Assembly (NCBI GenBank): GCA_026396285.1
Contig: JAPLXB010000045.1
Span: forward strand, 343 to 64,342
DNA length: 64,000 nucleotides
Direction of reading: 5' to 3'
Source of the DNA: Candidatus Micrarchaeota archaeon
GTDB lineage: Archaea > Micrarchaeota > Micrarchaeia > Norongarragalinales > JAPLXB01
The position numbers and the translations under genes were made by a program. Below the pieces are notes generated by a model. The model was not told the origin of the DNA and did no database searches. It worked only from the letters and a program-made list of their open reading frames with translations. Positions within the stretch are counted from its first letter, which is position 1, and each line of letters starts with the position of its first letter. Below are positions 11,140 through 34,377 of this stretch, piece by piece.

Positions 11140-12693
11140 TTGGGTTTCCGGGGTTTGGAACCGGGCCGTCTTGTCCGGCGGCGCCGGGTATTGGGCGCTG
11201 GAAGGCGCCTTTGCGGGAGTGGGTGTGGCTTGTTTCCTGAAATAACCGAATCTTACCTTCGAGAGAACTCGCTCGTCAAGCAGTTCATCGACTCCTACGA
11301 CAAGTTCGTTGAGAACGGGTTGCAGGAAATCGTTGACTCGCAGGCGGTGATAGAGCCGCAGATGGAGGGCGTGGTCGTGAAGCTAGGGCGGGTCAGCCTC
11401 GGCAGGCCGGTCGTCATCGAATACGACGGCTCCAAGAGGGAATTGTGGCCCATGGAGGCGAGGCTCAGGGACCTCACGTACTCGGCGCCGCTGTACCTGG
11501 AAATGACGCAGGCCGTGAACGGCGTTGAAAAGAAGCCCGAGAACGTTTACGTCGGCGAACTCCCGGTGATGCTGAAGTCAAAGCTGTGTTACCTTAGGGG
11601 AAAGAACGCGGACGAACTAGTCCAGGCCGGCGAGGACTCCCACGACCCCGGGGCGTACTTCATAATCAACGGCACCGAGAAATCGCTGATGACGCTGGAG
11701 GACCTGGCGCCGAACAGGATACTGGTGTCGCGCGAGAAGGACAAGGAGATGACGCAGGCCAAGGTTTTCTCCACGCGCCTCGGCTTCAGGGGACGCTGCA
11801 CCGTGGACAGGACGAAGGACGGGAAGTTTTACGTGACCATGCCTTCGTACAGCAAGGCGATTGAACTCATGCTGGTTCTCAAGGCCCTGGGATTGGACAA
11901 GGACGAAAAGGTGCTCGACGCTTTCCCGGAGCAGCCGGAAGTAAGGAACGACGTGCTCCTCAACCTCGAGTCCGACGAGGCGAAGGGCAGGAAGGACGCC
12001 CTTGAATCAATAGGCAAGCGCGCTGCGCCGGGCCAGCCAATTGAATACCAGATGAAGAGGGCGGAACTGCTGCTTGACCGGTATCTCCTGCCGCACATCG
12101 GCGTGAACGAGAAGGACCGGCTGGCGAAAGCGTATTTCCTGTGCAGGATGGCCGAACGGACGGTGTACGTCGCTTACAAGCTGCGGTCAGTCGAGGACAA
12201 GGACCACTACGCCAACAAGCGCCTCAAGATCTCGGGGAAACTGATGGAGGAACTGTTCAGGTACGCGTTCCAGTTTTTGGTCAAGGACGTGACTTACCAG
12301 ATGGAGCGCGCCAACGTCAGGGGCAGGAAAATCAGCATGTTCGCAATCGTGCGGCCTGACGCGCTTTCGGACAGGATAAAGTATTCCATGGCTACCGGCA
12401 ACTGGGTCGGGGGCCACACCGGCGTGTGCCAGCCTCTTGACCGCTACAACTACATTTCGGCAATGAGTTTCCTGCGGAGGGTGACGTCGCCGCTGGCGAA
12501 GAAGCACCCCCACCACAAGGCAAGGGACCTGCACGGCACGCACTGGGGCAGGCTTGACCCGAACGAGACTCCCGAGGGGCCGAACTGCGGCTTGGTGAAG
12601 AACCTGGCGCTGTTCTGCGAAATCACGACCGGCGCCGAAGAGGAGCCGCTGGAAGCGATGTTCAAGAAAGCGGGGGTCACGCTGCGCGCGTGA
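11140..12693 (+). CDS. rpoB2: DNA-directed RNA polymerase subunit B'' (N-terminal half of a split rpoB)
   Basis: Conserved RpoB N-terminal motifs SYLRENSLVKQFIDSYDKFVENGLQEIV and downstream rudder/lobe regions. The gene ends with a stop 27 nt before B'. The N-terminus from the ATG at 11140 is an odd Arg-rich 30 aa, so the true start may be the TTG at 11230, just before ITESYL. Confidence 0.85.
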   Translation: MGFRGLEPGRLVRRRRVLGAGRRLCGSGCGLFPEITESYLRENSLVKQFIDSYDKFVENGLQEIVDSQAVIEPQMEGVVVKLGRVSLGRPVVIEYDGSKRELWPMEARLRDLTYSAPLYLEMTQAVNGVEKKPENVYVGELPVMLKSKLCYLRGKNADELVQAGEDSHDPGAYFIINGTEKSLMTLEDLAPNRILVSREKDKEMTQAKVFSTRLGFRGRCTVDRTKDGKFYVTMPSYSKAIELMLVLKALGLDKDEKVLDAFPEQPEVRNDVLLNLESDEAKGRKDALESIGKRAAPGQPIEYQMKRAELLLDRYLLPHIGVNEKDRLAKAYFLCRMAERTVYVAYKLRSVEDKDHYANKRLKISGKLMEELFRYAFQFLVKDVTYQMERANVRGRKISMFAIVRPDALSDRIKYSMATGNWVGGHTGVCQPLDRYNYISAMSFLRRVTSPLAKKHPHHKARDLHGTHWGRLDPNETPEGPNCGLVKNLALFCEITTGAEEEPLEAMFKKAGVTLRA

Positions 12694-12720: not shown

Positions 12721-14562
12721 GTGGTTGGAATGAAGGTAAGCGTTTACTTGAACGGGCGGTTCATCGGGTTCACCGAGGAAGGCGAGAAACTCGCCCAGGA
12801 CATCCGCGACAAGAGGCGCGGCGGGGAGCTTGACCCCCAGGCCAACGTCGCCTACTATCCGCGCACCAACGAAGTCTTCGTCAACACCGACGAAGGCCGG
12901 GCGAGGCGGCCGCTGATAGTCGTCAAGCGCGGGAAAAGCATGTTCACTCCCCAGCACGCGGAAAAACTGAGGCAGAGACAGCTCGCTTGGAGCGGCCTCG
13001 TGAAGGAAGGCGTGGTTGAATACCTTGACGCGGAAGAGGAGGAGAACGCCTACGTTGCGATGGACGAAACCGAACTGGACCGCGCCACCGGGGCCGGAAA
13101 GGAGGAGCGCTTCACGCACCTTGAAATAGACCCTGCAAGCATCCTTGGCTACGCGTCCGCCCAGGTCCCGTTCCCGGAGCACAGCATGGCGCCGAGGGTC
13201 CTCATGGCCGCCCAGCACACGAAGCAGAGCCTCGGGCTGTACGCGTCAAATTACAACATGAGGACCGAGACAAGGGCGTATGTCCTCAACTATCCCCAGA
13301 AACCGCTTACAAAGACGAGGGTCTACGACTCCCTGGAGAACTACCGGCGCGCCAGCGGCCAGAACTTCGTCGTCGCGGTGCTTTCCTACCGCGGGTACAA
13401 CCTGAACGACGCGGTCGTCCTCAACAAGGACGCGATCGACCGCAGCCTTGCGCGGAGCGTCTTCCTCAGGACCTACGCCGACGAGGAGAGGCGCTATCCG
13501 GGCGGGCAGAAGGACAAGTTCGAGATCCCGCCTGAGTTCGTCCAAGGCTATCTCGGGGAACCCGATTACGCCAACCTTGACGAGAAGGGAGTGATCAACC
13601 CGGATACGCCAGTCGGGCCTGACTCGGTCCTCGTGGGCAAGACTTCGCCGCCGAGGTTCTTGAAGGAAATAAGCGCACTTGACGTGGAGACCGAGAAGCG
13701 GAGGGAGAATTCGCTGGCGGTCAGGAGCAACGAGTCAGGGGTCGTCGACGCGGTCATCATGTCCGAGACCACCTCTGGCAACAGGCTAGTGAAAGTCCGC
13801 GTGAGGAAGACGAACGTCCCGGAAATCGGGGACAAGTTCGCGTCGCGCTTCGGCCAAAAAGGGATCGTGTCAATGCTTGTTCCCCAGAGGGACCTGCCGT
13901 TCACCGCCTCGGGCGTCGTGCCCGACTTGATGATCAACCCCCACGCCATTCCCGGAAGAATGACTGCAGGCCACCTGATTGAAATGCTGGCAGGCAAGGC
14001 CGCATCCATCGACGGCAGGCGCAGGGACGGCACCGCGTTCACCGGCGAAAAGCGCGAGGACTTCGAGAAGACGCTCGCGGAAAACGGGTTCAGGTACACC
14101 GGCGAGGAACTCCTCTACGACGGGGTGACCGGCAAGATGATGCCGGCCAAGATTTTCGTGGGCGTGATTTACTACCAGCGCCTCCACCACCTCGTGAGCC
14201 TCAAGATGCACGCGCGCTCGCGCGGGCCCGTGCAGATGCTTACCCACCAGCCGACCGAGGGAAGGGCCCGCGAAGGCGGGTTGAGGCTGGGAGAGATGGA
14301 ACGCGACTGCTTCATAGGCTTCGGCGCGGCCGCGCTGCTGAAGGAGAGGATGATTGACTCAAGCGACAAGACCACGGAACTCGTGTGCGAGGACTGCGGG
14401 TCGCTGGGAGTCGCGGACAAGATAAAGAACCGCATTTACTGCCCCTTGTGCGAGTCCACGAACGTGCACGAGGTGGAAATGAGTTACGCGTTCAAGCTCC
14501 TATTGGACGAGATGAAGAGCATAGGGATTTTCCCGAAACTCCAGTTGAAGTCAAAAGGATGA
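12721..14562 (+). CDS. rpoB1: DNA-directed RNA polymerase subunit B' (C-terminal half of a split rpoB)
   Basis: Universal RpoB motifs GDKFASRFGQKG, NPHAIPGRMTAGHL and GGLRLGEMERDC, plus C-terminal Zn-binding CEDCGS...CPLCES. Confidence 0.9.
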   Translation: MVGMKVSVYLNGRFIGFTEEGEKLAQDIRDKRRGGELDPQANVAYYPRTNEVFVNTDEGRARRPLIVVKRGKSMFTPQHAEKLRQRQLAWSGLVKEGVVEYLDAEEEENAYVAMDETELDRATGAGKEERFTHLEIDPASILGYASAQVPFPEHSMAPRVLMAAQHTKQSLGLYASNYNMRTETRAYVLNYPQKPLTKTRVYDSLENYRRASGQNFVVAVLSYRGYNLNDAVVLNKDAIDRSLARSVFLRTYADEERRYPGGQKDKFEIPPEFVQGYLGEPDYANLDEKGVINPDTPVGPDSVLVGKTSPPRFLKEISALDVETEKRRENSLAVRSNESGVVDAVIMSETTSGNRLVKVRVRKTNVPEIGDKFASRFGQKGIVSMLVPQRDLPFTASGVVPDLMINPHAIPGRMTAGHLIEMLAGKAASIDGRRRDGTAFTGEKREDFEKTLAENGFRYTGEELLYDGVTGKMMPAKIFVGVIYYQRLHHLVSLKMHARSRGPVQMLTHQPTEGRAREGGLRLGEMERDCFIGFGAAALLKERMIDSSDKTTELVCEDCGSLGVADKIKNRIYCPLCESTNVHEVEMSYAFKLLLDEMKSIGIFPKLQLKSKG

Positions 14563-14563: not shown

Positions 14564-17500
14564 TTGATTGGGTGCAGGTGTGTTTTTGTGATGAAGGCGA
14601 TTTCAGGCATTGAATTCGGCGTCTTTTCCCCGGAGAACGTGAGGAAAATGAGCGCGGTCAAGGTCACCGTGCCGGACACCTACGACGAGGACGGGTACCC
14701 CATCAGCGGCGGGCTCGCCGACCAGCATCTGGGCGTCATTGACCCCGGCCTCAAGTGCAAGACGTGCGGCGGCAGGATGAAGACGTGCGGCGGCCACTTC
14801 GGCCACATCGAGCTCGTCCGGCCGGTCGTGCACGTGGGTTTCGCCAAGCCGGTTTACCTGCTGTTGCGCGCGACGTGCAGGAAGTGCGGCCGCGCCATGA
14901 CCGCGGAATCGATTGAAAAGGCGAAGCGCATATCCGAGTGCCCGCACTGCGGCGAGCAGCAGAAAACCATCAAGTTCGTGAAGCCGACGAGTTTCTACGA
15001 GGAGGACCGCAGGGTTCTCCCGAACGAGGTCAGGGAACGCCTTGAACGCATTACCGACGAGGATTTGGCCGCGTGGGGGATAAAGCTGAGGCCCGAGTGG
15101 ATGGTGCTCACGATCCTGCTCGTGCCGCCGGTGACTGTCAGGCCAAGCATCACCCTTGAAACCGGGGAAAGAAGCGAGGACGACCTGACCCACAAGCTCG
15201 TGGACATTTTGAGGATCAACCAGCGCCTCGGGGAAAACATTGACGCGGGAGCGCCCCAGCTAATCATAGAGGACTTGTGGGAGCTTTTGCAGTACCACGT
15301 TGCGACGTTCTTTGACAACGAGACCGCGGGAATCCCGCCGGCGCGCCACAGGTCCGGCAGGCAGTTGAAGACGCTTTTCCAGCGCCTCAAGGGCAAGGAA
15401 GGAAGGTTCCGCTACAACCTGTCCGGCAAGAGGGTCAACTTTTCCGCGCGCACGGTGATTTCGCCTGACCCGATGCTGGGGATAAACGAGCTCGGCATAC
15501 CGCAGGAAATCGCCAAGGAACTCACGCTGCCGGTGTCGGTCACCGAATGGAACAAGGAGAACATGAAGGAGCTGGTGAAGGCGAACGCGGAGAAGATAAA
15601 CTACATAATCAGGCCGGACGGACGGAGGAAGAAGCTCATTCCCAGCAACGTCGACGAAATCGTCGCCGAACTTGCGCCGGGTTACGTGATTGAAAGGCAG
15701 TTGATGGACGGCGACCTAGTGATATTCAACCGCCAGCCGTCCCTCCACCGCGTGAGCATGATGTGCCACTCGGTGCGCGTGCTGCCGGGCAAGACGTTCA
15801 GGTTCAACGTCGCGGTCTGCGCGCCGTACAACGCGGACTTCGACGGGGACGAAATGAACATCCACGTGCCACAGAACGAGGAGGCGCAGAGCGAGGCGGA
15901 CATACTCATGAAGGTGCAGGACCAGATTCTTTCGCCGCGGAACTCGGAGCCGCTCATAGCGCCGATACTTGACCAAGTGAGCGGGCTTTACCTCTTGACT
16001 ATTGACGGCACGACGTTCACTAGGGCGGAGGCGTGCTCGCTGCTCGCAAGCGCCGGCATCGTGGAGGAAGTGGGTGGCGACAAGACGACCGGCAAGGAAC
16101 TGTTTTCGTTCCTGCTTCCCAAGGGATTTAACGTCGAGTACGTGAACCGCAGCAAGGAGGCCGTGAAGATAAAGAACGGCAAACTGTTGTCCGGCCACGT
16201 GGACAGCAAGATAAGCGACCTGCTCACCAAGCAGATTTTCGACGACTTCGGTTCCGAGGCGGCAAGGAAATTCCTGGACGCGGCCACGAGGATTTCAACG
16301 GAAGTGATCACGCGCTACGGCCTGTCGCTCAGCCTCGAGGACTACCACCTCAGCGAGGAGGGCGTGAAGGAAATAAGGGACATCTGGCGCGACGGAAGGA
16401 AAAAAGTGAAATCCCTTGTCCAACAGTACCGCGAGGGGAAACTCGAGAGAAAGCCGGGGAAAACACTGAAGGAGACCCTCGAGGAACTGGTCATGAATGT
16501 CCTTGAGCACACGAGGGACTCGTGCGGCCACCACCTGCTCCACCACATCAAGCGCGTGCCGTTGAAGGCGTTCGGCGCGCCGGTCAACCACAATTCCGCG
16601 CTCCTCATGAGCAGGGCGGGCGCGAGGGGAAAGCTCCTGAACGTGGTGCAGATGGCCGCGCTCGTTGGCCAGCAGGCCGTGAGGGGCAAGAGGATGAAGT
16701 CGGGTTACAAGAACAGGATACTCCCGCACTTCAAGAAAGGCGACCTGGGCGACGACGCAAGGGGTTTCGTGAGCAGCAGCTACGTAGAAGGCCTTGACCC
16801 GCTCCAGTACTTCTTCCACGCGGCCGGAGGCCGCGATTCGGTCGTGGACAAGGGCGTCAACCCCGCGAAGACGGGTTACATGCAGCGCAGGCTCATCAAC
16901 GCCCTCCAGGACATGATGGTTACCCCGAGCCGCTGCGTCAAGGACGCGGAAGGCAGCATAATCCAGTTCAAGTACGGCGACGACGGAATGGACATCGCAG
17001 GCAAGCCCATTTCACCGGGCGAGCCGGTGGGAGTCGTGGCCGCCCAAAGCATAGGCGAGCCCGGCACCCAGATGACGCTGAGGACATTCCACTACGCGGG
17101 AGTCGCTTCACTGGCGCAGCTTGGTTTCACGCGCCTCGTCGAAGTCGTGGACGCGAGGAAGACGCCCAAGAACCCGGTCATGGAAGTTTACCTGAAAAAA
17201 GAGTATTCCAAGGACCTGGACAAGGTGAAGGCCATCGCCTCCAGCATAGAGGAGATAACGGTTGACAAGATTGCGTCGGTCAAGGAGGAGTTCTCGAAGA
17301 AACTAATCCGCATCACGCTCGACACCGACGCGCTGGACGAGATGAAGATAAAGCCCGAGGAAGTGACCGAGAAAATAAAGGCCATCGAGCCCGCGACCAC
17401 GCGCGACAAGAACGTGATAACGGTGAAGACAAAAGCAGAGGACTTGAAGAGCATAAGGAAGATAACCACGCGGCTCAAGGAAATGACGCTAAAGGGGATA

Positions 17501-17980
17501 AAGGGCATCGCGCGCGCCATCATCGTTGAAATGAACGGCGAACTGACGCTCGCCACCGAGGGAAGCAACCTTGAGGAAGTGTTCAAGATACCCGCAGTGG
17601 ACGCGGTGCGCACGAGCACGAACGACATTGTCGAGATATCCAAGGTGCTGGGCATAGAGGCTGCGCGCAACTCCATCATAACCGAGATAGTGAAAGTCCT
17701 CGATGCACAGGATTTGAAAGTGGACCTGAGGCACATCATGCTCATTGCCGACGCGATGACGCTCAAGGGCGAAGTGAAGTCAATCGGCCGCCACGGGCTG
17801 GCAGGCGAAAAGGCGTCTGTCCTGGCGCGCGCGGCGTTCGAGGAGACCGCGAAGCACTTGCTCAAGGCGTGCGTCTACGGCGAAAGCGACCCGCTGAAGG
17901 GGGTCACTGAAAACATAATCATCGGCCAGACCATTCCCTGCGGCACCGGGACAGTAAACCTGGAAATGGACGTCGACTAG
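14564..17980 (+). CDS. rpoA: DNA-directed RNA polymerase subunit A, unsplit (A' and A'' regions in one 1138-aa reading frame)
   Basis: N-terminal Zn motif CKTCGG..CGGHFGH. Catalytic NADFDGDEMN. Bridge helix AKTGYMQRRLINALQDMM. About 50 aa later, with no intervening stop, come the A''-specific AAQSIGEPGTQMTLRTFHYAGV and the C-terminal jaw/cleft. The probable true start is MKAISGIEFG at 14591. Confidence 0.85.
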   Translation: MIGCRCVFVMKAISGIEFGVFSPENVRKMSAVKVTVPDTYDEDGYPISGGLADQHLGVIDPGLKCKTCGGRMKTCGGHFGHIELVRPVVHVGFAKPVYLLLRATCRKCGRAMTAESIEKAKRISECPHCGEQQKTIKFVKPTSFYEEDRRVLPNEVRERLERITDEDLAAWGIKLRPEWMVLTILLVPPVTVRPSITLETGERSEDDLTHKLVDILRINQRLGENIDAGAPQLIIEDLWELLQYHVATFFDNETAGIPPARHRSGRQLKTLFQRLKGKEGRFRYNLSGKRVNFSARTVISPDPMLGINELGIPQEIAKELTLPVSVTEWNKENMKELVKANAEKINYIIRPDGRRKKLIPSNVDEIVAELAPGYVIERQLMDGDLVIFNRQPSLHRVSMMCHSVRVLPGKTFRFNVAVCAPYNADFDGDEMNIHVPQNEEAQSEADILMKVQDQILSPRNSEPLIAPILDQVSGLYLLTIDGTTFTRAEACSLLASAGIVEEVGGDKTTGKELFSFLLPKGFNVEYVNRSKEAVKIKNGKLLSGHVDSKISDLLTKQIFDDFGSEAARKFLDAATRISTEVITRYGLSLSLEDYHLSEEGVKEIRDIWRDGRKKVKSLVQQYREGKLERKPGKTLKETLEELVMNVLEHTRDSCGHHLLHHIKRVPLKAFGAPVNHNSALLMSRAGARGKLLNVVQMAALVGQQAVRGKRMKSGYKNRILPHFKKGDLGDDARGFVSSSYVEGLDPLQYFFHAAGGRDSVVDKGVNPAKTGYMQRRLINALQDMMVTPSRCVKDAEGSIIQFKYGDDGMDIAGKPISPGEPVGVVAAQSIGEPGTQMTLRTFHYAGVASLAQLGFTRLVEVVDARKTPKNPVMEVYLKKEYSKDLDKVKAIASSIEEITVDKIASVKEEFSKKLIRITLDTDALDEMKIKPEEVTEKIKAIEPATTRDKNVITVKTKAEDLKSIRKITTRLKEMTLKGIKGIARAIIVEMNGELTLATEGSNLEEVFKIPAVDAVRTSTNDIVEISKVLGIEAARNSIITEIVKVLDAQDLKVDLRHIMLIADAMTLKGEVKSIGRHGLAGEKASVLARAAFEETAKHLLKACVYGESDPLKGVTENIIIGQTIPCGTGTVNLEMDVD

Positions 17981-18053: not shown

Positions 18054-19229
18054 TTATTCCTTCGCGCGCGCGGCCGCGATTTTCTTGGACAGCGAGTCCA
18101 TGCCCGCCTTCTGCTCGATGAGCGTCTTCCCAAGAGCCACGACCGTGTCATAGAGCGCCTTGTCGAATTCAAGGGCAACCGACTGGGTGGACGAGAACGC
18201 CTTCATCATCTTCGCGAAATCGGCCATCGCGTTCCTCGTCGCCCGCGTGTCCTCCCTGACCGCCGACAACCCGGTTTCAAGGCGCTGGCGCATGCTCGTC
18301 ACGTCAATGAATGAGCGCAAACTGTCCAGTTTCTTCTCGTAAGCGGCGAAGTCGCCCTTGTCCGGGAGCCCCGCGAGCCTTGCATCGACGGCCTTTGACT
18401 GCGCCCTCAGCCCTGCCGCGGCCGACGCGAATTCCCTGGTGTTTTCCGCAACCACTTCTGTGAGGCCGGTCCTCAGCTCCTTTGCCGCTGCCGCGAATTC
18501 CTTGGTGTTTTCAGCCAATGCCTCGCTCAAGTCCGAGCGCAGCGCCTTCATTTCGCTCTTCAGGCCGCCGGCGGCTTCGGCGAACTCGTCGGAAGCCGAG
18601 GAAACAGTATCGTTTAATTTGCCCACTTGGGCAGCTGTCGGGAGCGCCGAAACCTTTTCCTGCAGCGCATCAACCTCCTTCAAAAGTTTTTCAACGGGCT
18701 TCCCGCTCTCTTCAAGGGTCTTGAGGATGTCCTTCCACTCCTCGCGCGACGGGAATTCCTTGAGTTTCTGAACCGACGCCGTCAGCTCCTGTTTCGTCGG
18801 CAGGGCCCCGATTGACTTATCCAACTCGTTCAAGTCGTCGCTGGTCGGCATCGCGAGGATTTTCTTGGAGACGCTGTCAATCGCCGTGCCCACGGACTGC
18901 ACTTGGGTCCTGAGCGCGTTCTTGTTGGCCTCCATCAGCACGTCAACGTCGCGCAAAAAGTCGTCAAAAGAAGTCTTGGAAGGCACGGTCTCCATGCGGG
19001 CTGAAATGATTTTCAGCGCGTTGGATGCGTCGCCCGCGCCGCGGGCCGCCGAGTCGGCGGCGTTGATTATTTTCTCGGAGGTTCCGGAAAAATCGCTTTC
19101 AAGAGCCGTTATTTTCTTCCCGGTCAAGTCGGATGACTTTTTCAACTCGTCCACGGACTCGGACAGGGCATCCACTTTTTTCACGAGCTCCAGGAAAGCC
19201 GCTTCAAGCCGCGCCAGAGTGTCAACCAA
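18054..19229 (-). CDS. coiled-coil protein with internal sequence repeats (391 aa), last gene of the giant-protein operon
   Basis: Almost entirely predicted alpha-helical with heptad character. The segment ENTKEFAAAAKELRTGL is repeated as ENTREFASAAAGLRAQ. No catalytic motifs. The gene is convergent with the rpoA stop. Confidence 0.5.
   Translation of the reverse strand: MVDTLARLEAAFLELVKKVDALSESVDELKKSSDLTGKKITALESDFSGTSEKIINAADSAARGAGDASNALKIISARMETVPSKTSFDDFLRDVDVLMEANKNALRTQVQSVGTAIDSVSKKILAMPTSDDLNELDKSIGALPTKQELTASVQKLKEFPSREEWKDILKTLEESGKPVEKLLKEVDALQEKVSALPTAAQVGKLNDTVSSASDEFAEAAGGLKSEMKALRSDLSEALAENTKEFAAAAKELRTGLTEVVAENTREFASAAAGLRAQSKAVDARLAGLPDKGDFAAYEKKLDSLRSFIDVTSMRQRLETGLSAVREDTRATRNAMADFAKMMKAFSSTQSVALEFDKALYDTVVALGKTLIEQKAGMDSLSKKIAAARAKE
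18412..18520. repeat. ~70-bp imperfect tandem duplication inside the coiled-coil CDS
   Basis: The unit CTGCCGCGGCCGACGCGAATTCCCTGGTGTTTTCCGCAAC (18412..18451) recurs as TTGCCGCTGCCGCGAATTCCTTGGTGTTTTCAGCCAATG (18482..18520). Confidence 0.4.
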
Positions 19230-19260
19230 CCAGACCAGTCCCCTCTAATCCCTGAAAGCC

Positions 19261-20121
19261 TCAGACGACTGTCGCGGGCTTCTTTTCACTGCCGCCGGCG
19301 CCCGCGGTTACCGGAGTTTTCCTAGCCGCTTCCTCCACTTTAGCCCTAAGTTGCGCGAGTTCCTTGGCCTGCGCAGTCTCCTTGATTTGGACCTTGAGCT
19401 GTTCCACGTCCCTTATCGTGTCGTTGATTTCGCGGAACATGCTCTTCACGTCGTTCGCCAGGCGCAGGTACTCTTCAAAACGTTTCTGGAACTCCACGAA
19501 AATGAATTCCACCTTGTCCGCGTGCTTTTCGGACTCGGCCTCAAGCTTCTTTATAGAAGAAAGCTCGCCCTTGACTTCCTCGTTCAGTTGCAGCAGCGTC
19601 TCCGTGCCCCTGGTCGCCATCAAGTCGTTCCTGACAATCTTCATTTCCTCCCCGAGCTTCTCCTCGATGGTCTCCACTTTTTCAACCATCCCCTTGACAA
19701 CCTCTATTTTCGCGTCAATTTTCTTGACGTCCATTGAGAGCTTTTCCGGCTGGACCGCCTCGACGAGGGCCGACGCCTTCTCCGCCTGCAGCTTCATTTC
19801 CCTGCCCGACTTTTCGCTCTCCAACAGCATTGCCCGCAATTCGCCTATTTCCTCGTTGAGCCGCGCGAATTTTTCGTCGGAAATCTGGCGGTACTGCTTC
19901 AGCGCCTCAATCTGGCCCCTGGCCAGCTCGAGGTCGCGTTCGAGCAGCGCAGCGCCCTTTGCCCCTCCCTGGCCCCTGCCGGGCTCGGGCTTTTCCTCTT
20001 CCTCGGGCGTGTATTTTTCCTCGCCGGAAACCATGGCCAAGTCGGTCATTGTTTCCAGTTCTTCCTCAGTGGGCCCTGTCTTTTTGGAAATCTTTTTCTT
20101 GATGGAATCCAGGAAACCCAT
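19261..20121 (-). CDS. acidic coiled-coil protein (286 aa)
   Basis: Short N-terminal amphipathic segment MGFLDSIKKKISKK, an acidic linker, then about 200 aa of heptad-repeat helix. This is reminiscent of ESCRT-III / PspA-like or archaellum-accessory coiled-coil proteins, but I make no confident family call. Confidence 0.45.
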   Translation of the reverse strand: MGFLDSIKKKISKKTGPTEEELETMTDLAMVSGEEKYTPEEEEKPEPGRGQGGAKGAALLERDLELARGQIEALKQYRQISDEKFARLNEEIGELRAMLLESEKSGREMKLQAEKASALVEAVQPEKLSMDVKKIDAKIEVVKGMVEKVETIEEKLGEEMKIVRNDLMATRGTETLLQLNEEVKGELSSIKKLEAESEKHADKVEFIFVEFQKRFEEYLRLANDVKSMFREINDTIRDVEQLKVQIKETAQAKELAQLRAKVEEAARKTPVTAGAGGSEKKPATVV

Positions 20122-20175
20122 TCCAACCCGCCCGGCGGCGTTGGCGCCGCCGCGTGCATTAATGCAGGCGGGCTT

Positions 20176-20418
20176 TTAATCGCTTTCCTCCACTTCGTTG
20201 ACGTTCCAGGCGCCGCACTTTGGGCACTTGGAGGGTTTTGAAAGCACGACCAGCCGCGAGTTGCCCCAGTCCTCCGGCTCAAGCAGATACTCGTTCCTGC
20301 ACCCGTGGCAAATCACGTAAATGCGGCTTATGCCGCTGGATCTCCCGACCGGGAACAGGTTGGTGCGCCCAATGCCAAGGAACCTGCCGAGCCCGGGCTG
20401 CCTGCCGATGAAAACCAT
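20176..20418 (-). CDS. small zinc-ribbon protein (about 80 aa from the internal ATG)
   Basis: Two CxxC pairs (CHGC ... CPKC) spaced about 40 aa apart. The upstream in-frame extension to 20544 is Gly/Ala/Arg-rich and probably not translated. Confidence 0.5.
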   Translation of the reverse strand: MVFIGRQPGLGRFLGIGRTNLFPVGRSSGISRIYVICHGCRNEYLLEPEDWGNSRLVVLSKPSKCPKCGAWNVNEVEESD

Positions 20419-20573: not shown

Positions 20574-23500
20574 TCAGACGCCGTGCTTCTTCGCCTGCGT
20601 CTCCACCTTCTGGGTGAGGGACTCCATGTAAATGTCCACTATGTTGAACGCGCCTTTCTTGAGCTTGTCGCGGACGATGTTCAGTTCCAGTTCAAGGTCA
20701 AGCACGTCCACTCCCTTCGCTTTTATGGCGGCAACCTTCTCCTCCAGCACCTCTATCCGCTGGTTGTACTCGTCGTACTTCTGGAGCTCGGTTTCCGAAA
20801 GGCGGACGATGTTGTGCTGCAGCGCCCTGTAGGTCACGAAGTACGGCGCGCCCCTGTTGTACTCGGGGTTGTGCATCATGCCGCTCCCGATTGCGGACCG
20901 GACGATGCTCCTCGCGGTCTCGTCCCCGAACTTGGTCCTGATACGCTCCAAGTCGCCCTCGTACTTGGTGCGCATCTGGATTTCCGTGGAAATGTTTGCC
21001 TTGATTTCGCCCACGAAGTCGCTCAGCACCTGCGAAATGAGTACCAGGCCCAGGCCCCATTTCCTGTACTCCCTCGCCGCCCGCTCTATCTGCACGAGGC
21101 CCTCGCCGCTTCCCCCGAACTTGGGCAGCAGGCGGTGGACTTCGTCGTAAACGAACAGCACCTTGAGCTTCGGCGACTCCTCGGGCTGGCTGGCAAACAC
21201 CTGCTTGACCGTGTTGGCGTAGAAAGAGTCAACCTGCTGCGGCGTCAGCCGCGAAGTGACGAACACCGTTATTTCGCCGGGCCTCGTCAGTTTCTTGAGG
21301 TCAACCTGCTGGTCGGCGTTCTTGACTACGACGATGTTCCCGTCAAAGGCGCGCGCCTCGCTCAGCGACATCCCGAACTTCTTGTACGCCGCCAGCATCT
21401 CCCTGTTCTTCTGCGGCCTCAGGAAACCGCTCCACTGCGCGGTCGGGTCAAAGACGACCACCGCGATGCCTTTCTTGAGCGCCTCTTCCGCAATCACCTG
21501 CGCCGCCACCGTCTTTCCGGACCCGCTTCCTCCCGCGACCAGCGTGTGCATAGTGAGTTTTTGGAAGTCCACGAACGCCCGCACGTTCGTTTCCGCGATG
21601 AGGCCGAGGAACCCGCCGTCGGGCCCTGGCTGGGGCAGCGTCGCGAAGTCAATTTTCGACAAATACCTTTTCATCTTCGCCTTCTGGTACCGGTCGTAGT
21701 AAGCGTAACTCGTGCCGGCGGTCACTGCGGCTCCGGCGAGCAGCAGGTAGAACAGCGGGACGCCCATGAAACGCATTTCAAGCAGGCCAATCTGCACCTT
21801 GATGTTCGCGAACGCCGAAATCGCGCGCGTCGTGTTCAGGACAAGCCGGTAGTAGGCGGTCGCCTTGAGCATGTAAGTGCCGACCGCAAGGTCCGGCGGC
21901 ACCGTGATTGACTTCGTTATAGTCTGCGAGCTCTCGAACTCAAACGGGTCCCCTGACTCGAAAACCACCGCGTCAGTGTCGTAGTTTATCAGGTAGAGCC
22001 TGACGATGCCGCTGACGCTCTTGGTGGCGCCGGTGTTGAACAAGTTGAGGTCCACCTTGAAACTCTGGCCCGGCGACACGTCGGTCTGGTACGGGACTAG
22101 TTTCAAGTCAATGAACTTCTCCTTCGTCTCGCCAACGCGGATGGTGACTGGCATTACCGCCAAGCCGAGTTCGTTAGTGAAAATAATCTGGCCGTAGTAC
22201 ATGCCTGGTTTTGTGTCCTCGGGGATGCTGATTGCGGCCATTACCTCCGCGGTCTCTCCCGGCGCAAGGGTAACCGAAGGCCTGACCGAGAAGAACGGGA
22301 CCGTGTCGCCGGTCGCCTGGATTGCGACGGTGGTCGCGGAAGCGTTCTGGATGTTCTTCACGCGCAGGGTGACCATCGTCTCCTCGCCAAGGAGCAGTTC
22401 GAGGTAAATGGTCTGGGGATAAATATCGAGCCCGATTTTGTTCTCCATTCCTCCGGTCAGGTTCAGGACGGCTTCCAGCGTCTCGTTCGTGGAGTTCAGT
22501 ATCTCTCCCTTGGCCTGGGAAATGATTTTCTGGACTTCCTTCGCAATCTCCTCGAGCGACGGCCCGATTGCCCCCACCGCCATCGCCGGGGGAGCGGTAT
22601 ACCCTGGCTGAGCCCCTCCACCGCCGCCGTAAACGGTGACGTACGTCGCCCCGGGCGCCACGCCCAACACGCTCTCGCCGGCAGCGTAGGCGCTGAAACC
22701 GGTTATGACCACGGTTATCGAGCCCGGCATCCCTCCCTGCCTGCCGACGACGTTCGTCAACGAAATCCAGCCGCTCGGGCACGCGAGCGAAGTGAAGCCC
22801 CAGTCCGCGCACCGCGCCACGAACACGTTGTCAATGTTGTCGACCTGGGTCACGTCAAACGGCAGCGCCAGCGTGCCCGAAAACGACGGCGCCGGACGGC
22901 CGTCGGTGTAACTGAAGTTCAGCGCGAGGATGAACAGTTTCCTCATTGACGGCACGAGCGCCGCGTACACCGGAACCGAGTCTATGCCGATTGAAAGGTT
23001 CTCCATCTGCGAGAACGACACGCCCGACAACACGAGCGTCGCGTTCAACGCCTTTATCACCACGTCATAGGTCCTGTTGTAGACGTTGACCGAATAGTGG
23101 CCGGTCGCGTTAGTTGAGAAATTCGAGACTGTGACGTTTGTGCCGGGCCTGAGGAGCGTGAAGTTCGTCACCGTCCCCCCGCCAACGGAATTGGCTATGC
23201 GGCCCACGAAGTTCGCGATGTTGTAATAAACCTCGAACGGCGCGGAAACGTTGCGCTGGTTGCCGTCCAAGTCAGTCGCGGACACGACTGCGGTGTACCC
23301 GCCCAGGATGGAGAAGTTGGACGAGACCCTCCACGTGCCGCTCACAGTGTTCCCTGAAACCAGTGACATCGTGTGAGTGGTCACGGTGCTGTCCGGCCAC
23401 GTCACGAACGCGGTGACAGTCGAAACCTGCCTGTTGTCGGAAACGGCGGCTGAAACCACTGCGTTGCTTCCCTGCTGCGCGTCCGTGGTCGTCACGCTCA

Positions 23501-26500
23501 CCGACGGCTGCGTGATGTCCTTGTAGTAGAGGATTGACGCGTTCCTTCTGGTGAATATAACCGGCCCGTTCGGCGACGAGTAGTTTCCAATGACTACGAA
23601 ATCATAGAACTGCGCGTCGGTCTTGGACGGCGCAGTGAACGAAAGGATTTTGGAACTGCCCGCCGCGGTCATGTTGACTTGCGAGGCTTCGGTGTCGTTG
23701 ACGAACACGCGGTAGGTGACGTTTTCCGTGATGTCCGCCGGCGTGTAAAAGTCCACGAGCCGCACGGTGGCGTTGATTGAGTCGCCGGGAATGATTTGCG
23801 GCGGTGCGGAAACGCTTTCCAATAGTATTCCGTAGAAGAACGAGTTGAATGAGATGTTGACTTGCTTGTTGCCACTGCTTTCATTCACCTGCAGCACTCC
23901 TGCATAGTGGGCGTTGGTCTCATTGGCAGTGTAATTCATGCGAATGGCGAACGACTGGCCGCCTGAAAGCGACGTGGACGAGTCGAGCAGGTTCGCGAAC
24001 GTCGTCATGTTTCCAAACAGCCCGAACTGGAAGTTCAGGAACGCGTCAGCGGTACCGGTGTGCGTGATGACCGTGTCGCTGTTGACCTTGTTCTCGTTCG
24101 ACACCGCGTTTATGACCATGGTGTCGCGGCTGAGCGACCAGGAATAGTTCAAAGGCGTCACAACGTTTGCTGTGAATCCCTTCGTGTAGCCCGTTCCCTG
24201 CACGCTGCACGAAAAGCTCCTGCCCCCGACTCCCCCGCTGGAGGACACGCCATAGTCCACTCCGACGGTCGTGGATATGTTCACCGGGTTGTCCAAGGCG
24301 ACTGTCCGCGGCGAAGGCGAATAGGAAACCGTGACATTGGGGCTGATTGACGTGGTGGAGACTGCGAATGGAACGTTGTCGTTGCCCGTCGCCTCTACTG
24401 TGAGGTTTTGCACCGTGCTGTGGCCGTGCTCGATGGTCAGCGAAGCCGGGAACGTGACGGTGAAGTTCGGGTTGGACAAGACGCTTATCAAAACCGGGGA
24501 TGCCGTGTAAATGCCGCTGACGCCGTTCGGATTAACCCACTTGACTATTGGGTTGAAGTAGTAGGTTCCAAGGGCCCTGGGCGGCACGCTGACGTTGACG
24601 AACGTGCTGAACCAGCCCGGAGCGAGGTTCGCGTATGAAAGGTTCGTGTAACTGAAGCCGCTCGTGTTCGCGCCGCTGAACGAGCCGGTCACGTTCACCG
24701 AATAGCCCTTCACGTTGCCGCCGTTTACGATGAGAAACGGGATGGAAACGTTCTTTCCAACTGATTTCGTCACGTTCGCGACGCTCACCGCCTGGCCCGA
24801 GGCATTAATGTTCGTGGTGGGAACCACTTGGAACGAGAACTGCGTGGAATTAAGCTGGCCCGTGACGTCATTCACTCCAAAGGTCACGGCGTAGTCGTAA
24901 ACTCCCGTGATGTTCGTGTTGCCGAAGTCCACGTAAAACCTCCTGACGTCCTTGCAGAGGCCGCCGCAGTAGATGTCCGGGTCCTCCCAGTCGCTTGGGG
25001 GCGCAAAAGACCAGGAATAGCCGGGGGCCGTGACGTTGAAGAAGGCGGTCGAAGCGTTCAAGCCGTTGATTTCGTCGTCCGTGGCCCACACCTCAAGGGT
25101 GACGGACTTGTTGAATTCGACGAAACTCCTCCTAACTCCTTCCGTGATTGTTGACACGTTTATGAACTGGGGCGGCGCGTTGCTGACGTTGAAGAACACG
25201 TAAACGTCCCTGTTCGTCGGGTCCGCGGAACCGCTTTGCAAATGCGCCCTGATGCCATACCCGGGGGAGGCGTTGCTGCTCTCCTGGCCACTCTGGCCGA
25301 AGCAGATGTTTACAGAAGAGCCTTTTGAAACGGAAACCGTGTTGTTGTTGCAGTTGACTCCGCCGATGTTGATGTTCGGGCCGCACGTGCCTATGTAAGT
25401 GCAGTTCTTGTACCCGGGAACCGCGTCATACGACACCGAAAAGGTCAGGTCGATGTTTCCCGGGTTTTCAATGGTGTAATTTGCTATGATTCCCTTCTGG
25501 TTCAGCGCGAACGCGTTGGACTGGTTCGCGGACGGCACGATGACCCACGACGCGTTCGTGAGGACGTTGACGTTCACTTGAAGCGACTGGTTCACGTCCT
25601 GGCTCCCAGAGTAATACCCGGTCGTGTTCAGGAATCCATGGTATGCGCCGGGCGCCGCCTGGGCCGGGACCGACACGCTGAACGTCACGGTCTTCGTCGA
25701 GCCGGAGTTGGGAATCTTGGTGAAGCTCGTCCACTGGCTCGGGGAGAAGGAAATCCAAGAGGAGTTTATGGCGGTGGCAGTGAAGTTGTTGTTGACCGGG
25801 CCGAGCACAACGTTCCCGTCATTCGTCACCCCGATGGCTATTGTCTGCGACTGTCCCGGATACAAGTTCATGTCGAGCGAGGGAGTGATGTTGTATGACA
25901 GGTGCTTCGTCACCGCGCCGCCGATTTGCGTGGATGTGGTTATTGTCGTGTTGGATAAGTCGTTGTTCGTCCACGTCCCGTTCCAAGTCACCTGGTAATA
26001 CTGGCCCGGATTCAGCCCGGCGGGCAGCGTGACGTTGAAAACGCTGTAACAGTTGCCGCTCTGGATGAGTATGGCGCCGCACGTGGTGCCAAGTTCCACG
26101 ATAGACTCCATTAAGCCTATCTGGGACACGCCGATGTCCGGGTACGTCATGTCCGCCTTGTTGCTGTTGTTAAGACTAACAGTGATGTTCACTGAATAAG
26201 GCACGCTCGGCGTGTCAACGGTCGCGGGCGCGTTGAGCGTCCCGTCCGCCAGCTGTTCCTGGAACCAATCCTGGCCCGCCTTTTCTGCATAATCGTATTT
26301 CGTGCTGCTGTTGATGCCGGTCGCGAGTCGCCGGTCGAGTTGTAGAGCGTGATGCTCCGGGCGCCGTTCAACTGCGGCGCTGCCGACGCGTTGACCCACG
26401 TGATGTAAACCTCGTTCAGGAACGGCGTCTTGGAAGAGTCGTTTGAAGCGAAAACCGCGCGGTACCTCAGGTAACGCGAAACCGGTGCCTTGGCGAAGTC

Positions 26501-26633
26501 GCCGTAAAAGCCGCCGTACGCGGCAATCGTGGAAGAATTCGAATAGGAGTCGAGGGGCGTCCACTTGTAACTGTTGTTCGACGACGACGTGTACATGGTG
26601 ATGTTCGTTCCCGGCGGCTCGGTCGTCCACCAC
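20574..26633 (-). CDS. giant surface protein, C-terminal portion (ORF 2 of 2): Asn/Thr/Ser-rich Ig-like region, transmembrane helix, cytoplasmic HerA/FtsK-superfamily ATPase
   Basis: The first ~100 aa of the ORF (MVDDRAAGNEHHHVHVV...) are out-of-frame junk. Genuine sequence starts at ...ATGINSSTKYDYAEKAGQDW. A single hydrophobic helix GVPLFYLLLAGAAVTAG lies near the C-terminus. It is followed by a 379-aa cytoplasmic domain with Walker A LVAGGSGSGKT (21510..21533), Walker B VLFVYDEVH (21135..21158), and an arginine-finger region REYRKWGLGLVLISQ typical of DUF87/HerA/VirB4-like ATPases. Confidence 0.8.
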   Translation of the reverse strand: MVDDRAAGNEHHHVHVVVEQQLQVDAPRLLFEFFHDCRVRRLLRRLRQGTGFALPEVPRGFRFKRLFQDAVPERGLHHVGQRVGSAAVERRPEHHALQLDRRLATGINSSTKYDYAEKAGQDWFQEQLADGTLNAPATVDTPSVPYSVNITVSLNNSNKADMTYPDIGVSQIGLMESIVELGTTCGAILIQSGNCYSVFNVTLPAGLNPGQYYQVTWNGTWTNNDLSNTTITTSTQIGGAVTKHLSYNITPSLDMNLYPGQSQTIAIGVTNDGNVVLGPVNNNFTATAINSSWISFSPSQWTSFTKIPNSGSTKTVTFSVSVPAQAAPGAYHGFLNTTGYYSGSQDVNQSLQVNVNVLTNASWVIVPSANQSNAFALNQKGIIANYTIENPGNIDLTFSVSYDAVPGYKNCTYIGTCGPNINIGGVNCNNNTVSVSKGSSVNICFGQSGQESSNASPGYGIRAHLQSGSADPTNRDVYVFFNVSNAPPQFINVSTITEGVRRSFVEFNKSVTLEVWATDDEINGLNASTAFFNVTAPGYSWSFAPPSDWEDPDIYCGGLCKDVRRFYVDFGNTNITGVYDYAVTFGVNDVTGQLNSTQFSFQVVPTTNINASGQAVSVANVTKSVGKNVSIPFLIVNGGNVKGYSVNVTGSFSGANTSGFSYTNLSYANLAPGWFSTFVNVSVPPRALGTYYFNPIVKWVNPNGVSGIYTASPVLISVLSNPNFTVTFPASLTIEHGHSTVQNLTVEATGNDNVPFAVSTTSISPNVTVSYSPSPRTVALDNPVNISTTVGVDYGVSSSGGVGGRSFSCSVQGTGYTKGFTANVVTPLNYSWSLSRDTMVINAVSNENKVNSDTVITHTGTADAFLNFQFGLFGNMTTFANLLDSSTSLSGGQSFAIRMNYTANETNAHYAGVLQVNESSGNKQVNISFNSFFYGILLESVSAPPQIIPGDSINATVRLVDFYTPADITENVTYRVFVNDTEASQVNMTAAGSSKILSFTAPSKTDAQFYDFVVIGNYSSPNGPVIFTRRNASILYYKDITQPSVSVTTTDAQQGSNAVVSAAVSDNRQVSTVTAFVTWPDSTVTTHTMSLVSGNTVSGTWRVSSNFSILGGYTAVVSATDLDGNQRNVSAPFEVYYNIANFVGRIANSVGGGTVTNFTLLRPGTNVTVSNFSTNATGHYSVNVYNRTYDVVIKALNATLVLSGVSFSQMENLSIGIDSVPVYAALVPSMRKLFILALNFSYTDGRPAPSFSGTLALPFDVTQVDNIDNVFVARCADWGFTSLACPSGWISLTNVVGRQGGMPGSITVVITGFSAYAAGESVLGVAPGATYVTVYGGGGGAQPGYTAPPAMAVGAIGPSLEEIAKEVQKIISQAKGEILNSTNETLEAVLNLTGGMENKIGLDIYPQTIYLELLLGEETMVTLRVKNIQNASATTVAIQATGDTVPFFSVRPSVTLAPGETAEVMAAISIPEDTKPGMYYGQIIFTNELGLAVMPVTIRVGETKEKFIDLKLVPYQTDVSPGQSFKVDLNLFNTGATKSVSGIVRLYLINYDTDAVVFESGDPFEFESSQTITKSITVPPDLAVGTYMLKATAYYRLVLNTTRAISAFANIKVQIGLLEMRFMGVPLFYLLLAGAAVTAGTSYAYYDRYQKAKMKRYLSKIDFATLPQPGPDGGFLGLIAETNVRAFVDFQKLTMHTLVAGGSGSGKTVAAQVIAEEALKKGIAVVVFDPTAQWSGFLRPQKNREMLAAYKKFGMSLSEARAFDGNIVVVKNADQQVDLKKLTRPGEITVFVTSRLTPQQVDSFYANTVKQVFASQPEESPKLKVLFVYDEVHRLLPKFGGSGEGLVQIERAAREYRKWGLGLVLISQVLSDFVGEIKANISTEIQMRTKYEGDLERIRTKFGDETARSIVRSAIGSGMMHNPEYNRGAPYFVTYRALQHNIVRLSETELQKYDEYNQRIEVLEEKVAAIKAKGVDVLDLELELNIVRDKLKKGAFNIVDIYMESLTQKVETQAKKHGV

Positions 26634-31884: not shown

Positions 31885-31960
31885 TTTTTTAATGGTTACC
31901 TGCCTGGGGCTGGGCGCAAGAAATAAAAACCAGTTTGTTAAACAAGATTTAACAATGTTA
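31885..31960 (-). promoter_or_regulatory. putative promoter/operator of the giant-protein operon
   Basis: On the gene strand, a TATA-like ATTAAAAAAG (31885..31894) sits 18 to 27 nt upstream of the ATG. Further upstream are two adjacent near-palindromes, TGTTAAACA (31936..31944) and TAACAATGTTA (31950..31960), that share the half-site TGTT/AACA. Confidence 0.3.
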
Positions 31961-32055: not shown

Positions 32056-32364
32056 TTGGCCGGTGAATTCGTTGGGTTCAGGGCGCCGCAGCAGTTGACG
32101 AAAACGGTTGCGTGGCTCGCGAAACTCGAGGGCAAGGACAAGTCCCAGGAATACCGGGAAGTGTTCGAGGCGGGATTGCGGGAAAAGCGCCGCGAGCTTG
32201 CGCTTTCCAAGTACCTGGCCGGGGGGACGAGCGTGGAAAAGGCGGCTGAAATCGCCGGCGTCTCGGTGTGGGAGATGCTTGACGTGCTGGAAGAGAAAGT
32301 GGTTTCCATAAACTTTGATTTTGAGGGCTTCGTCGCCGCGCTCGCGCGCGAGAAGGAGAAGTGA
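32056..32364 (+). CDS. UPF0175-family antitoxin (HTH-containing)
   Basis: The conserved C-terminal segment KAAEIAGVSVWEMLDVLEEKVV matches the UPF0175 hallmark (AAelaGvs.weF...L...gi). The stop overlaps the start of the downstream DUF3368 toxin gene (ATGA-type overlap at 32361..32364). Confidence 0.6.
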   Translation: MAGEFVGFRAPQQLTKTVAWLAKLEGKDKSQEYREVFEAGLREKRRELALSKYLAGGTSVEKAAEIAGVSVWEMLDVLEEKVVSINFDFEGFVAALAREKEK

Positions 32365-32879: not shown

Positions 32880-33084
32880 CGGGGTTGCCAGCTGCCCGGA
32901 AAAAGGGCGCAAGGAAAATAATATAAACGCCCCGCCCCCACTTTCTCTTCACTCCTTTTTTGGAATTGAATGGGGAGTAAACCCGGACTGCTTGGGCGAC
33001 GGCTTCGCCATCGCCGGTGTAGCAGGGTTTGAGAACCATTCCGAAAACGTTTCACGTTTTTTCGGATTGCTTGAAGTGCGTGCA

Positions 33085-33390: not shown

Positions 33391-33431
33391 GCAGGGCAGC
33401 GGGACGGCTGGCGTCATGTTTTGGGCGGTGA

Positions 33432-34367: not shown

Positions 34368-34377
34368 AGTGATTTGA

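Follow-up and report, generated by a model that had tools for sequence, protein, structure and literature searches.

What do three small genes do that follow a giant, ATPase-bearing surface protein gene in a Micrarchaeota genome, and do they belong with the ATPase? The locus lies in a 64,000-nt stretch of DNA from a Candidatus Micrarchaeota metagenome-assembled genome (MAG; NCBI GenBank assembly GCA_026396285.1, contig JAPLXB010000045.1, positions 343 to 64,342 of the forward strand), which as a whole is called the window here and is numbered from its first nucleotide. On its minus strand, the giant gene precedes a putative zinc-ribbon open reading frame (ORF) of 80 amino acids (aa; Zn80) and the genes for two coiled-coil proteins of 286 and 391 aa, CC286 and CC391. 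We propose, with a probability of about one half, that this locus is the Micrarchaeota version of an envelope-spanning ATPase apparatus that occurs across the DPANN archaea, and that CC286 is its membrane-tethered adaptor or scaffold. An earlier note on the window had read the unit as five genes and had offered the small proteins as adaptors or regulators of the ATPase, or as a scaffold beneath the surface protein.

The ATPase and the CC286 family occur together

The sequence of CC286 (19261-20121, minus strand, ATG start) is that of NCBI protein NTY90_04755 (Candidatus Micrarchaeota MAG), and it makes the protein a member of a large unnamed family for which neither Pfam nor NCBIfam has a model. 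A first search returned 35 homologs (E 2.4e-38 to 2.3e-11) from Woesearchaeota, Pacearchaeota, Micrarchaeota and unclassified archaea, and a profile search of 1.84 billion cluster representatives retrieved 973, 787, and 353 clusters at E<=1e-3, 1e-10, and 1e-30, respectively; CC286 itself matches the family profile at E 1e-81. Fifteen residues are invariant in an alignment of 16 members, and the conserved blocks NE(Q/E)(I/V)GELR, LVE(A/S)VQP(D/E)KL, DAKIEALKA, FRG, and HADKVE have their counterparts in CC286 as NEEIGELR, LVEAVQPEKL, DAKIEVVKG, TRG, and HADKVE. Family members measure from about 270 to 939 aa and, because the profile match is always limited to the N-terminal ~300 positions, their C-terminal extension is variable. 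Pfam searches with the 16 members gave generic coiled-coil or helical models only (E 1e-2 to 4e-6, in at most five of the 16), and CC286 itself matches none.

The genomic contexts were taken from a scan of one genome per species, which found 136 relatives and from which 80 loci, nearly all of them DPANN, were kept. The cytoplasmic ATPase domain of the window (358 aa) served as tblastn query, and the 56 loci whose upstream sequence reaches 5 kb or more were treated as informative. In the first three contexts, the gene of a large protein anchored by a DUF87 ATPase comes first and that of the CC286 homolog last, with one or two small genes between them. This order is the rule: the ATPase domain lies upstream of and co-oriented with the CC286 homolog in 51 of the 56 loci, with ~50% identity over all 358 aa and at a median distance of 1.6 kb; in the window, it is located upstream and co-oriented at 456 nt from CC286. 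Junctions that overlap or measure at most 30 nt are found between the ATPase gene and the intervening gene (33 of 48) and between the intervening gene and the coiled-coil gene (32 of 48), and 19 of these junctions are 4-nt overlaps. The arrangement is present in Woesearchaeota, Pacearchaeota and other Nanoarchaeota (Nanobdellota), lineages in which it appears independently, and the window is the only Micrarchaeota example; no closer Micrarchaeota relatives of CC286 were found in metagenome contigs. Co-conservation with the ATPase, on which the earlier note's grouping of the small proteins hinges, is thereby borne out for CC286, and a role of this protein as adaptor, regulator or scaffold near the ATPase would be in line with its synteny and tight junctions. 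Co-conservation does not hold for the Zn-ribbon and CC391, which have no detectable relatives outside this organism and whose positions are taken by different proteins in other lineages.

Some contexts deserve separate mention. One contig (L005; JGI 3300038380, Ga0434945_000832) carries the ATPase and a CC286 homolog with a tRNA-deacylase gene and a Yip1 gene between them, and also has genes for methenyl-H4MPT cyclohydrolase, deoxyhypusine synthase and CarS; because of this gene content, the pair may occur outside DPANN. Another (L077, PXDC01000294.1) is labelled as a Verrucomicrobia MAG, and about ten loci (L008, L009, L019 and others) are labelled 'uncultured Methanosarcinales' with operons of the Woesearchaeota type; both labels are probably binning or labelling errors. 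In L002, L003, and L005, the first three contexts examined, genes for KaiC-like ATPases (PF06745) occur at most 10 kb from the operon, which may be chance.

The giant protein and its ATPase

The P-loop domain at the end of the giant protein (20814-21602, minus strand) is, on motif and profile evidence, a member of the HerA/FtsK superfamily. Walker A (GGSGSGKT, giant ORF 2 aa 1701, 21510-21533) and Walker B (LFVYDE, aa 1826, 21141-21158) are both intact, the Pfam models DUF87 (42.4 bits, cut-off 23.2) and HerA_C (31 bits, cut-off 22) are matched above threshold, and sequence matches in the PDB are to HerA-like proteins, all distant (E 3e-5 to 1e-3). Membrane-anchored members of the HerA/FtsK superfamily, such as CedD (PMC11823120), are translocases of DNA or protein, and by analogy the ATPase should work as a ring-shaped translocating motor. 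Closer assignments failed. The best NCBIfam match, to a CedD/VirD4-like DNA-import coupling ATPase (NF053655), reaches 31.5 bits against a cut-off of 600 and covers only 52 residues around the P-loop, and the curated models for TraC and VirB4 are missed by wide margins. Elsewhere in the family of loci, L003 (2452-8833) carries, upstream of its CC286 homolog, a tandem pair of DUF87 ATPase genes (1,322 and 801 aa), and L011, L025, L041, and L057 have a shorter ATPase followed by a protein of 1,200-1,750 aa.

The giant gene (20574-31867, minus strand) is seen as two ORFs, ORF 1 (26189-31867) and ORF 2 (20574-26633), which overlap by 445 nt. Most likely, the two are a single frameshifted gene of ~3,760 aa, so that the unit probably comprises four genes rather than five; all five minus-strand ORFs listed in the earlier note are present at their positions. 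About 50 residues at the end of ORF 1 and 100 at the start of ORF 2 have an out-of-frame look. A sliding coding score is positive in the frame of ORF 1 down to ~26350 and then in that of ORF 2, switching near 26340, about 150 nt before the ORF 1 stop. Exactly at this switch (26310-26340, minus strand) lies an imperfect 14-nt tandem duplication, CGACCGGCGACTCGCGACCGGC, with the copies CGACCGGCGACTCG and CGACCGGC, and deletion of 14 nt fuses ...SITLYNSTG to INSSTKYDY... in frame. The duplication could be a real frameshift or an assembly error. The single-gene reading is further favoured because ORF 2, which has no signal or transmembrane segment of its own at its start, would as a separate gene encode a sequon-rich ectodomain without an export signal.

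Read in this way, the giant protein would consist of a signal anchor, Kelch repeats, a long region of repeats and Ig-like domains, a transmembrane helix, and a cytoplasmic ATPase. Only two hydrophobic segments occur in the gene, the ORF 1 N-terminus and ORF 2 aa 1615-1645, and the latter contains the transmembrane anchor directly N-terminal to the ATPase domain (21699-21770, minus strand; hydropathy scan). The basic stretch DRYQKAKMKRY follows the anchor, so that the positive-inside rule would place the ATPase in the cytoplasm. Pfam recognises Kelch repeats at the N-terminus and NEW3-like (NPCBM_assoc) domains in the ectodomain about 140 aa upstream of the transmembrane segment. The ectodomain of ~3,400 residues is probably N-glycosylated, to judge from its sequon density: the first ~1,500 residues of ORF 2 hold 61 N-glycosylation sequons (4.0 per 100 aa), and both ectodomain parts reach 4.0-4.1 per 100 aa, compared with 0.3-0.4 in the ATPase tail, CC286, CC391, and RpoA. 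The ectodomain is also far less conserved than the ATPase, with only two weak matches in other loci, both in the ~230 C-terminal residues next to the transmembrane segment.

CC286 as a probable membrane-tethered coiled-coil protein

CC286 begins with the hydrophobic-basic motif MGFLDSIKKKISKK (20080-20121; hydrophobic moment 0.55), from which an acidic disordered linker (19957-20079) leads to the conserved two-helix core (aa 56-268, 19318-19956). Hydrophobic-basic N-terminal motifs, among them MGFLDSIKKK, MFDFLKKKK, and MWPFKKK, are present in 120 of 177 family representatives and are followed by a net acidic linker; in CC286, the motif probably tethers the protein to the membrane. A subset of the family has C-terminal tails of the KGFFSKLFGKK type, which resemble the membrane-targeting tail of E. 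coli MinD, KGFLKRLFGG. The homolog in the only other Micrarchaeota locus recovered (L007, 616 aa) consists of the conserved domain (41% identity), a coiled-coil extension of ~330 residues and a C-terminal KGMFQSLWDRIKK tail. In the AlphaFold2 (AF2) model of CC286 (mean pLDDT 74), a helix at residues 4-11 is followed by a disordered segment (12-55) and by two helices of 67 (56-122) and 144 (125-268) residues, with the kink between them at the conserved VQPEKL.

No structural match to CC286 was found in the PDB. An ESCRT-III or PspA identity was rejected, as none of the Pfam matches listed for the 16 members is of the Snf7 or PspA_IM30 type and the PDB search gave no match to the fold. Some homologs carry the JGI label 'chromosome segregation ATPase'. 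An SMC identity was also discarded: TIGR02168 (cut-off 567) and TIGR02169 (cut-off 729) score 19.3 and 16.1 bits, the protein has no P-loop, and the matches reflect coiled-coil bias.

A membrane-tethered coiled-coil protein beside an FtsK-like motor could also belong to cell division or chromosome segregation, with the ATPase as an archaeal functional counterpart of FtsK and CC286 as a divisome scaffold comparable to EzrA, DivIVA or MinD-associated proteins. The terminal motifs of the family, which we take to be MinD-like, and the position of the locus among housekeeping genes, between rpoA and L30e-NusA-S12-S7-EF2, agree with this. In Haloferax volcanii, moreover, the HerA-domain protein HVO_1301, which may or may not be a relative of the window ATPase, localises to midcell (bioRxiv 10.64898/2026.07.16.738847). 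FtsK-like proteins, however, offer no parallel to an ectodomain so rich in sequons and so highly variable, from a few hundred residues in L005 to the ~3,400 of the window, and operons elsewhere include large PKD/DUF2341 surface proteins and other secreted proteins. We thus regard a division or segregation function as decidedly unlikely.

Accessory genes in other lineages and in the window

In 36 of the 51 loci with the ATPase upstream, exactly one gene separates it from the coiled-coil gene, and nearly all of these intervening genes encode one helical family with the motif RKKGxD...IPSKI...EAT. Its members measure 94-130 aa in Pacearchaeota-type loci and 200-300 aa in Woesearchaeota-type loci, where they have an N-terminal NDFADW module. 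A hidden Markov model (HMM) built from 23 of these small helical proteins matches, weakly, the C-terminal helical hairpin of the window ATPase (giant ORF 2 aa 1945-1992, 20658-20801, minus strand) as its best match in the six-frame translation of the window (domain E 0.021). The same HMM matches the equivalent position in the ATPases of several other loci, again weakly and consistently in position; a separate gene of the small helical family was not found in the window by HMM search. As a side observation, most ATPases of the Woesearchaeota type have a C-terminal extension with a repeated module of ~60 aa that bears the motif KNDF(A/S)xW(I/V), and the module recurs at the N-terminal end of the small helical proteins encoded with them (examples are L010 9050-9889, L002 9049-9954, and the last ~330 aa of L002 4846-8814). 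The module has no Pfam match, and the window ATPase has no such extension.

Many loci encode, further upstream, a small ribbon-helix-helix protein and a large PKD or DUF2341 surface protein. Directly downstream of the coiled-coil gene, and often overlapping its stop codon, Pacearchaeota-type loci have a conserved secreted protein of ~260 aa with a signal peptide and a C-terminal YYF(Y/F)VELE (L061 10852-11637, L069 10834-11622, L075 10688-11476, L084 10702-11475). None of the partner proteins of the other loci has a Pfam match.

Such surroundings are reminiscent of secretion. The ATPase could be the motor of an export system similar to type VII or type IV secretion systems (T7SS, T4SS), and the small helical proteins and the CC286 family could be its cargo or cargo-targeting modules instead of structural partners, in parallel to WXG100 or Lap helper proteins and to LXG proteins with their conserved helical N-terminal domain and variable C-terminus. 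A membrane-anchored motor of the FtsK/HerA type, helical proteins of ~95-130 aa adjoining it in most lineages, a partner family with ~300 conserved N-terminal positions and variable C-termini (270-939 aa in total), and secreted proteins in the same operons would all be expected of such a system. The C-terminal extensions of the CC286 family, however, are coiled coil and not toxin or enzyme domains, its N-terminus resembles a membrane-targeting motif more than a secretion signal, and a core with 15 invariant residues is unusual for effectors. There is no WXG100 or LXG match, and a noise-level match to DUF3958 occurs in only one of the 16 members. A secretion-substrate role of these proteins therefore seems unlikely to us.

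The slot of the small helical protein is occupied in the window by Zn80 (20176-20418, minus strand, ATG start), and CC391 (18054-19229, minus strand, TTG start) stands in place of the variable extension of the CC286 family; both correspondences are positional. The close spacing on one strand that the earlier note described holds for the small genes. The gap between giant ORF 2 and Zn80 measures 155 nt, or 29 nt if the 122-aa version is used (the ORF is open up to a GTG at 20544, and the 42-codon N-terminal extension is not coding-like); the gaps between Zn80 and CC286 and between CC286 and CC391 measure 54 and 31 nt. Codon-usage coding scores are positive in the annotated frame only (CC286 0.67, CC391 0.51, Zn80 0.24), and GC content at third codon positions (GC3) is 0.74-0.79 in the three ORFs, like rpoA. 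The same note was right to call CC286 acidic (isoelectric point 5.1) and CC391 repeat-containing (six phi-P-x-K/x-x-E/D-phi motifs and a 22-aa repeat); CC391 is acidic as well (isoelectric point 5.2), and both proteins are without cysteine and without a transmembrane segment. Its remark that no small protein has a recognisable catalytic motif agrees with the Pfam and NCBIfam scans.

Zn80 is a putative zinc ribbon, an assignment that rests on two CxxC pairs, C37-x2-C40 (20299-20310) and C65-x2-C68 (20215-20226). Zinc-ribbon matches in Pfam and NCBIfam are all below threshold (E 0.03-0.1), and a single-sequence AF2 model has beta strands flanking the knuckles at a low pLDDT of 50. Homologs of Zn80 among 5.8 billion proteins come from the same organism only. 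The same is true of CC391 in a protein search that scored the 8,000 candidates sharing most words, in which a distant coiled-coil relative could be missed, and in the metagenome scan; tblastn with both proteins in 86 related loci gave nothing. DUF2730 (PF10805) matches CC391 with 34.9 bits over the whole protein (cut-off 24.9) with no single stretch passing, about 25 other coiled-coil families match weakly, and the score most likely reflects repeat and coiled-coil bias. We also asked whether CC391 arose when a C-terminal extension split off from a CC286-family protein: profile comparison yielded nothing, and comparison with the C-terminal extension of the 616-aa homolog yielded E 0.047. We keep this origin as a suggestion, given the position of CC391 and its similar P-x-K-x-E motifs.

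It may be, then, that CC286 alone belongs to the system, with the Zn-ribbon ORF, CC391 or both being unrelated lineage-specific genes, or the 80-aa ORF no gene at all, placed here by the accident of a compact genome. The absence of detectable homologs of either protein outside the same organism speaks for this, as do the absence of a CxxC-containing protein in this slot among ~50 non-redundant other loci and the modest coding score and low model confidence of Zn80. A second assembly of the population (Logan, run SRR20698646) contains the locus with a single difference in 4,730 nt, so that a selection test on the Zn-ribbon ORF has no power. On the other side, the two CxxC pairs have a typical zinc-ribbon spacing in a frame with a GC3 of 0.79, the same-strand gaps are short and free of terminator-like sites, the coding signal of CC391 is clear and a gap of 31 nt separates this gene from CC286, and other lineages too have an accessory gene in the same slot. 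On balance, we find it doubtful that the two flanking genes are mere bystanders.

Transcription and translation signals

An A/T box, ATTAAAAAA (31885-31893, minus strand), is located 27-35 nt upstream of the ATG at 31858 and is a candidate promoter for the whole unit. Elsewhere in the window, genes that open a unit have comparable boxes at a similar spacing, and genes inside operons have none; those inside known operons have GGTGA-like elements in their place. Immediately 5' of the CC286 ATG lies GGGTTGGA, which is Shine-Dalgarno-like. No terminator-like hairpin with T-run was seen on the minus strand of the unit, including the gaps between its genes, and the 3' end of the unit converges on rpoA (14564-17980, plus strand). 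A sigma-70 promoter scan, which is not meaningful for an archaeon, found nothing.

The 54-nt spacer between Zn80 and CC286 (20122-20175, minus strand) is structured. Folded as 20122-20178, it forms a stable, branched, GC-rich stem-loop (-33.6 kcal/mol, z -2.9; three of 200 shuffles fold as well), which contains a stem of 8 bp between 20145-20152 and 20133-20140 and has a Shine-Dalgarno-like GGUUGGA at its end. The spacer is not terminator-like because it lacks a T-run, and its stem-loop may affect translation or transcript stability. Together, these signals fit a single transcription unit without proving it.

Proposed apparatus

The core of the proposed apparatus would be a bitopic protein with an N-terminal signal anchor, a very large, fast-evolving ectodomain, one transmembrane helix, and a conserved cytoplasmic HerA/FtsK-type ATPase. 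CC286 would be its obligatory cytoplasmic partner, bound to the inner face of the membrane via the N-terminal hydrophobic-basic motif, and the acidic flexible linker would hold the long two-helix coiled coil beside the ATPase, with which it may make contact. As adaptor, stator or scaffold, CC286 could position, oligomerise or regulate the motor. Most DPANN lineages add to this core a small helical protein resembling the C-terminal hairpin of the ATPase itself, and many have a variable C-terminal coiled-coil extension on the CC286 homolog; in the window, the Zn-ribbon and CC391 would fill these two positions as lineage-specific accessory subunits. The cargo might be DNA, protein or a surface structure.

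Several observations weigh against this proposal. The Zn-ribbon and CC391 are orphans, and their link to the ATPase consists of position and spacing in one genome. No ATPase lies within 10 kb of the CC286 homolog in four of the 56 informative loci. In the only other Micrarchaeota locus recovered, the homolog is located beside a histone gene and not beside an ATPase, with 860 nt of upstream sequence available. An internal promoter is conceivable, given the TATA-like GATTAAAAG that precedes CC286 by about 55 nt. A real frameshift in the giant gene could mean that this population makes no ATPase. Finally, the CC286 model is an elongated monomer with a pTM of 0.27, which is uninformative on assembly.

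A bolder version of the proposal is that the giant glycoprotein, the CC286 scaffold, and the accessory proteins constitute an undescribed DPANN-wide motor that builds or powers a cell-to-cell bridge for the exchange of DNA, protein or lipid between these ectosymbionts and their hosts. The ectodomain would set host specificity, and the ATPase and coiled-coil module would be the common engine. We consider this extension speculative and unlikely.

Genomic setting

The ~14-kb minus-strand unit and a plus-strand gene pair lie between rpoA and the L30e-NusA-S12-S7-EF2 genes (32857-37321). In archaea, the cluster of rpo and ribosomal protein genes is normally contiguous. The gene pair is divergent from the giant gene and consists of two overlapping ORFs (32056-32364, 102 aa, and 32361-32879, 172 aa, plus strand), which by eye, from their translations, are a putative antitoxin and a PIN-like toxin; the 172-aa ORF has no Pfam match at E<=0.001. 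The adjacent rpoA is a single ORF of 1,138 aa with Rpb1 domains 1 to 5, and rpoB upstream is split (11140-12693, 12721-14562). In most archaea, rpoA is divided into A' and A''.

This setting invites the idea of a defence or mobile island, in which a HerA-based anti-phage or mobile module has been inserted into the cluster beside a toxin-antitoxin pair. The interruption itself would fit, and the ATPase has weak matches to anti-phage HerA models (E 2e-6). These matches, however, reach just 26.6 bits against a cut-off of 850 (NF042944) and 18.3 bits against 800 (NF042943), and an anti-phage HerA identity was rejected. Domain scans of the genes neighbouring the ATPase detected no Sir2, DUF4297, nuclease or other effector, and the GC content of the unit does not differ from that of its flanks. 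The ATPase is moreover ~50% identical across distant DPANN lineages in a stable operon, and both its giant ectodomain and the surface proteins encoded nearby suggest a place at the cell envelope instead. We judge an island of this kind to be extremely improbable.

Comparison with known systems

DPANN archaea depend on physical contact with their hosts, and the machinery of this contact is largely uncharacterised. A conserved operon in which a motor is fused to a huge, variable surface domain and is accompanied by a partner family of roughly 800 sequence clusters is of interest in this respect: if it is a surface or transfer machine, work on host interaction in cultivated DPANN systems gains a candidate that is concrete and can be tested. 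The operon would also be a case of accessory swapping between lineages, of a Zn-ribbon for a small helical protein and of a separate coiled-coil gene for a C-terminal extension.

To our knowledge, T4SS ATPases are without large ectodomains. The CedD/VirD4-like and CedB/VirB4-like translocases are similar to the window ATPase in belonging to the same P-loop superfamily, in having transmembrane helices N-terminal to the motor, and in being encoded with small membrane or accessory proteins, but no large ectodomains are described for the Ced ATPases, compared with ~3,400 residues in the window (PMC11823120). Moreover, homologs of CedA, CedA1/A2, VirB2 and VirB6 did not turn up, and the Ced and T4SS systems have no counterpart of the CC286 coiled-coil partner family. 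T7SS (EssC/EccC with WXG100, Lap and LXG proteins) likewise pairs a membrane-anchored FtsK/HerA-type motor with helical proteins of ~100 aa and a longer one whose N-terminal part is conserved and whose C-terminus varies. It has no relationship in sequence to the window system and differs in having three ATPase domains instead of one, and in the system described here the C-termini are coiled coil rather than toxins and the N-terminal motif is membrane-targeting-like.

The CC286 family shares short hydrophobic-basic terminal motifs with the targeting sequences of MinD and FtsA, yet its motif is mostly N-terminal and is found on a coiled-coil protein, not on a ParA-type ATPase, and its membrane role is a prediction. 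With ESCRT-III, PspA, and Vipp1 it has in common an N-terminal amphipathic helix followed by long helices and, as predicted for CC286, a peripheral membrane location, whereas CC286 has an acidic linker of 45 residues between the N-terminal helix and the core.

Among the dark-matter clusters of DPANN (Makarova et al. 2019, PMC6393860), cls.004340 (NEQ484, alpha-helical, in a housekeeping context) would fit the CC286 family and cls.004306 (NEQ255, secreted, beside predicted secretion components) would fit the ~260-aa secreted protein, judged by their one-line descriptions; no link of these clusters to a HerA-type ATPase is described there. What Makarova et al. 2015 (PMC5898192) predicted is another secretion system, one based on MoxR. 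In the searchable literature, no paper was found that links DPANN, a HerA/DUF87 ATPase, and a coiled-coil partner, and none that describes the operon or the CC286 family. The fusion to a giant ectodomain and the coiled-coil partner family appear to be undescribed, while the system to which they belong is of a known kind, a membrane-anchored motor of the HerA/FtsK type that operates with accessory proteins.

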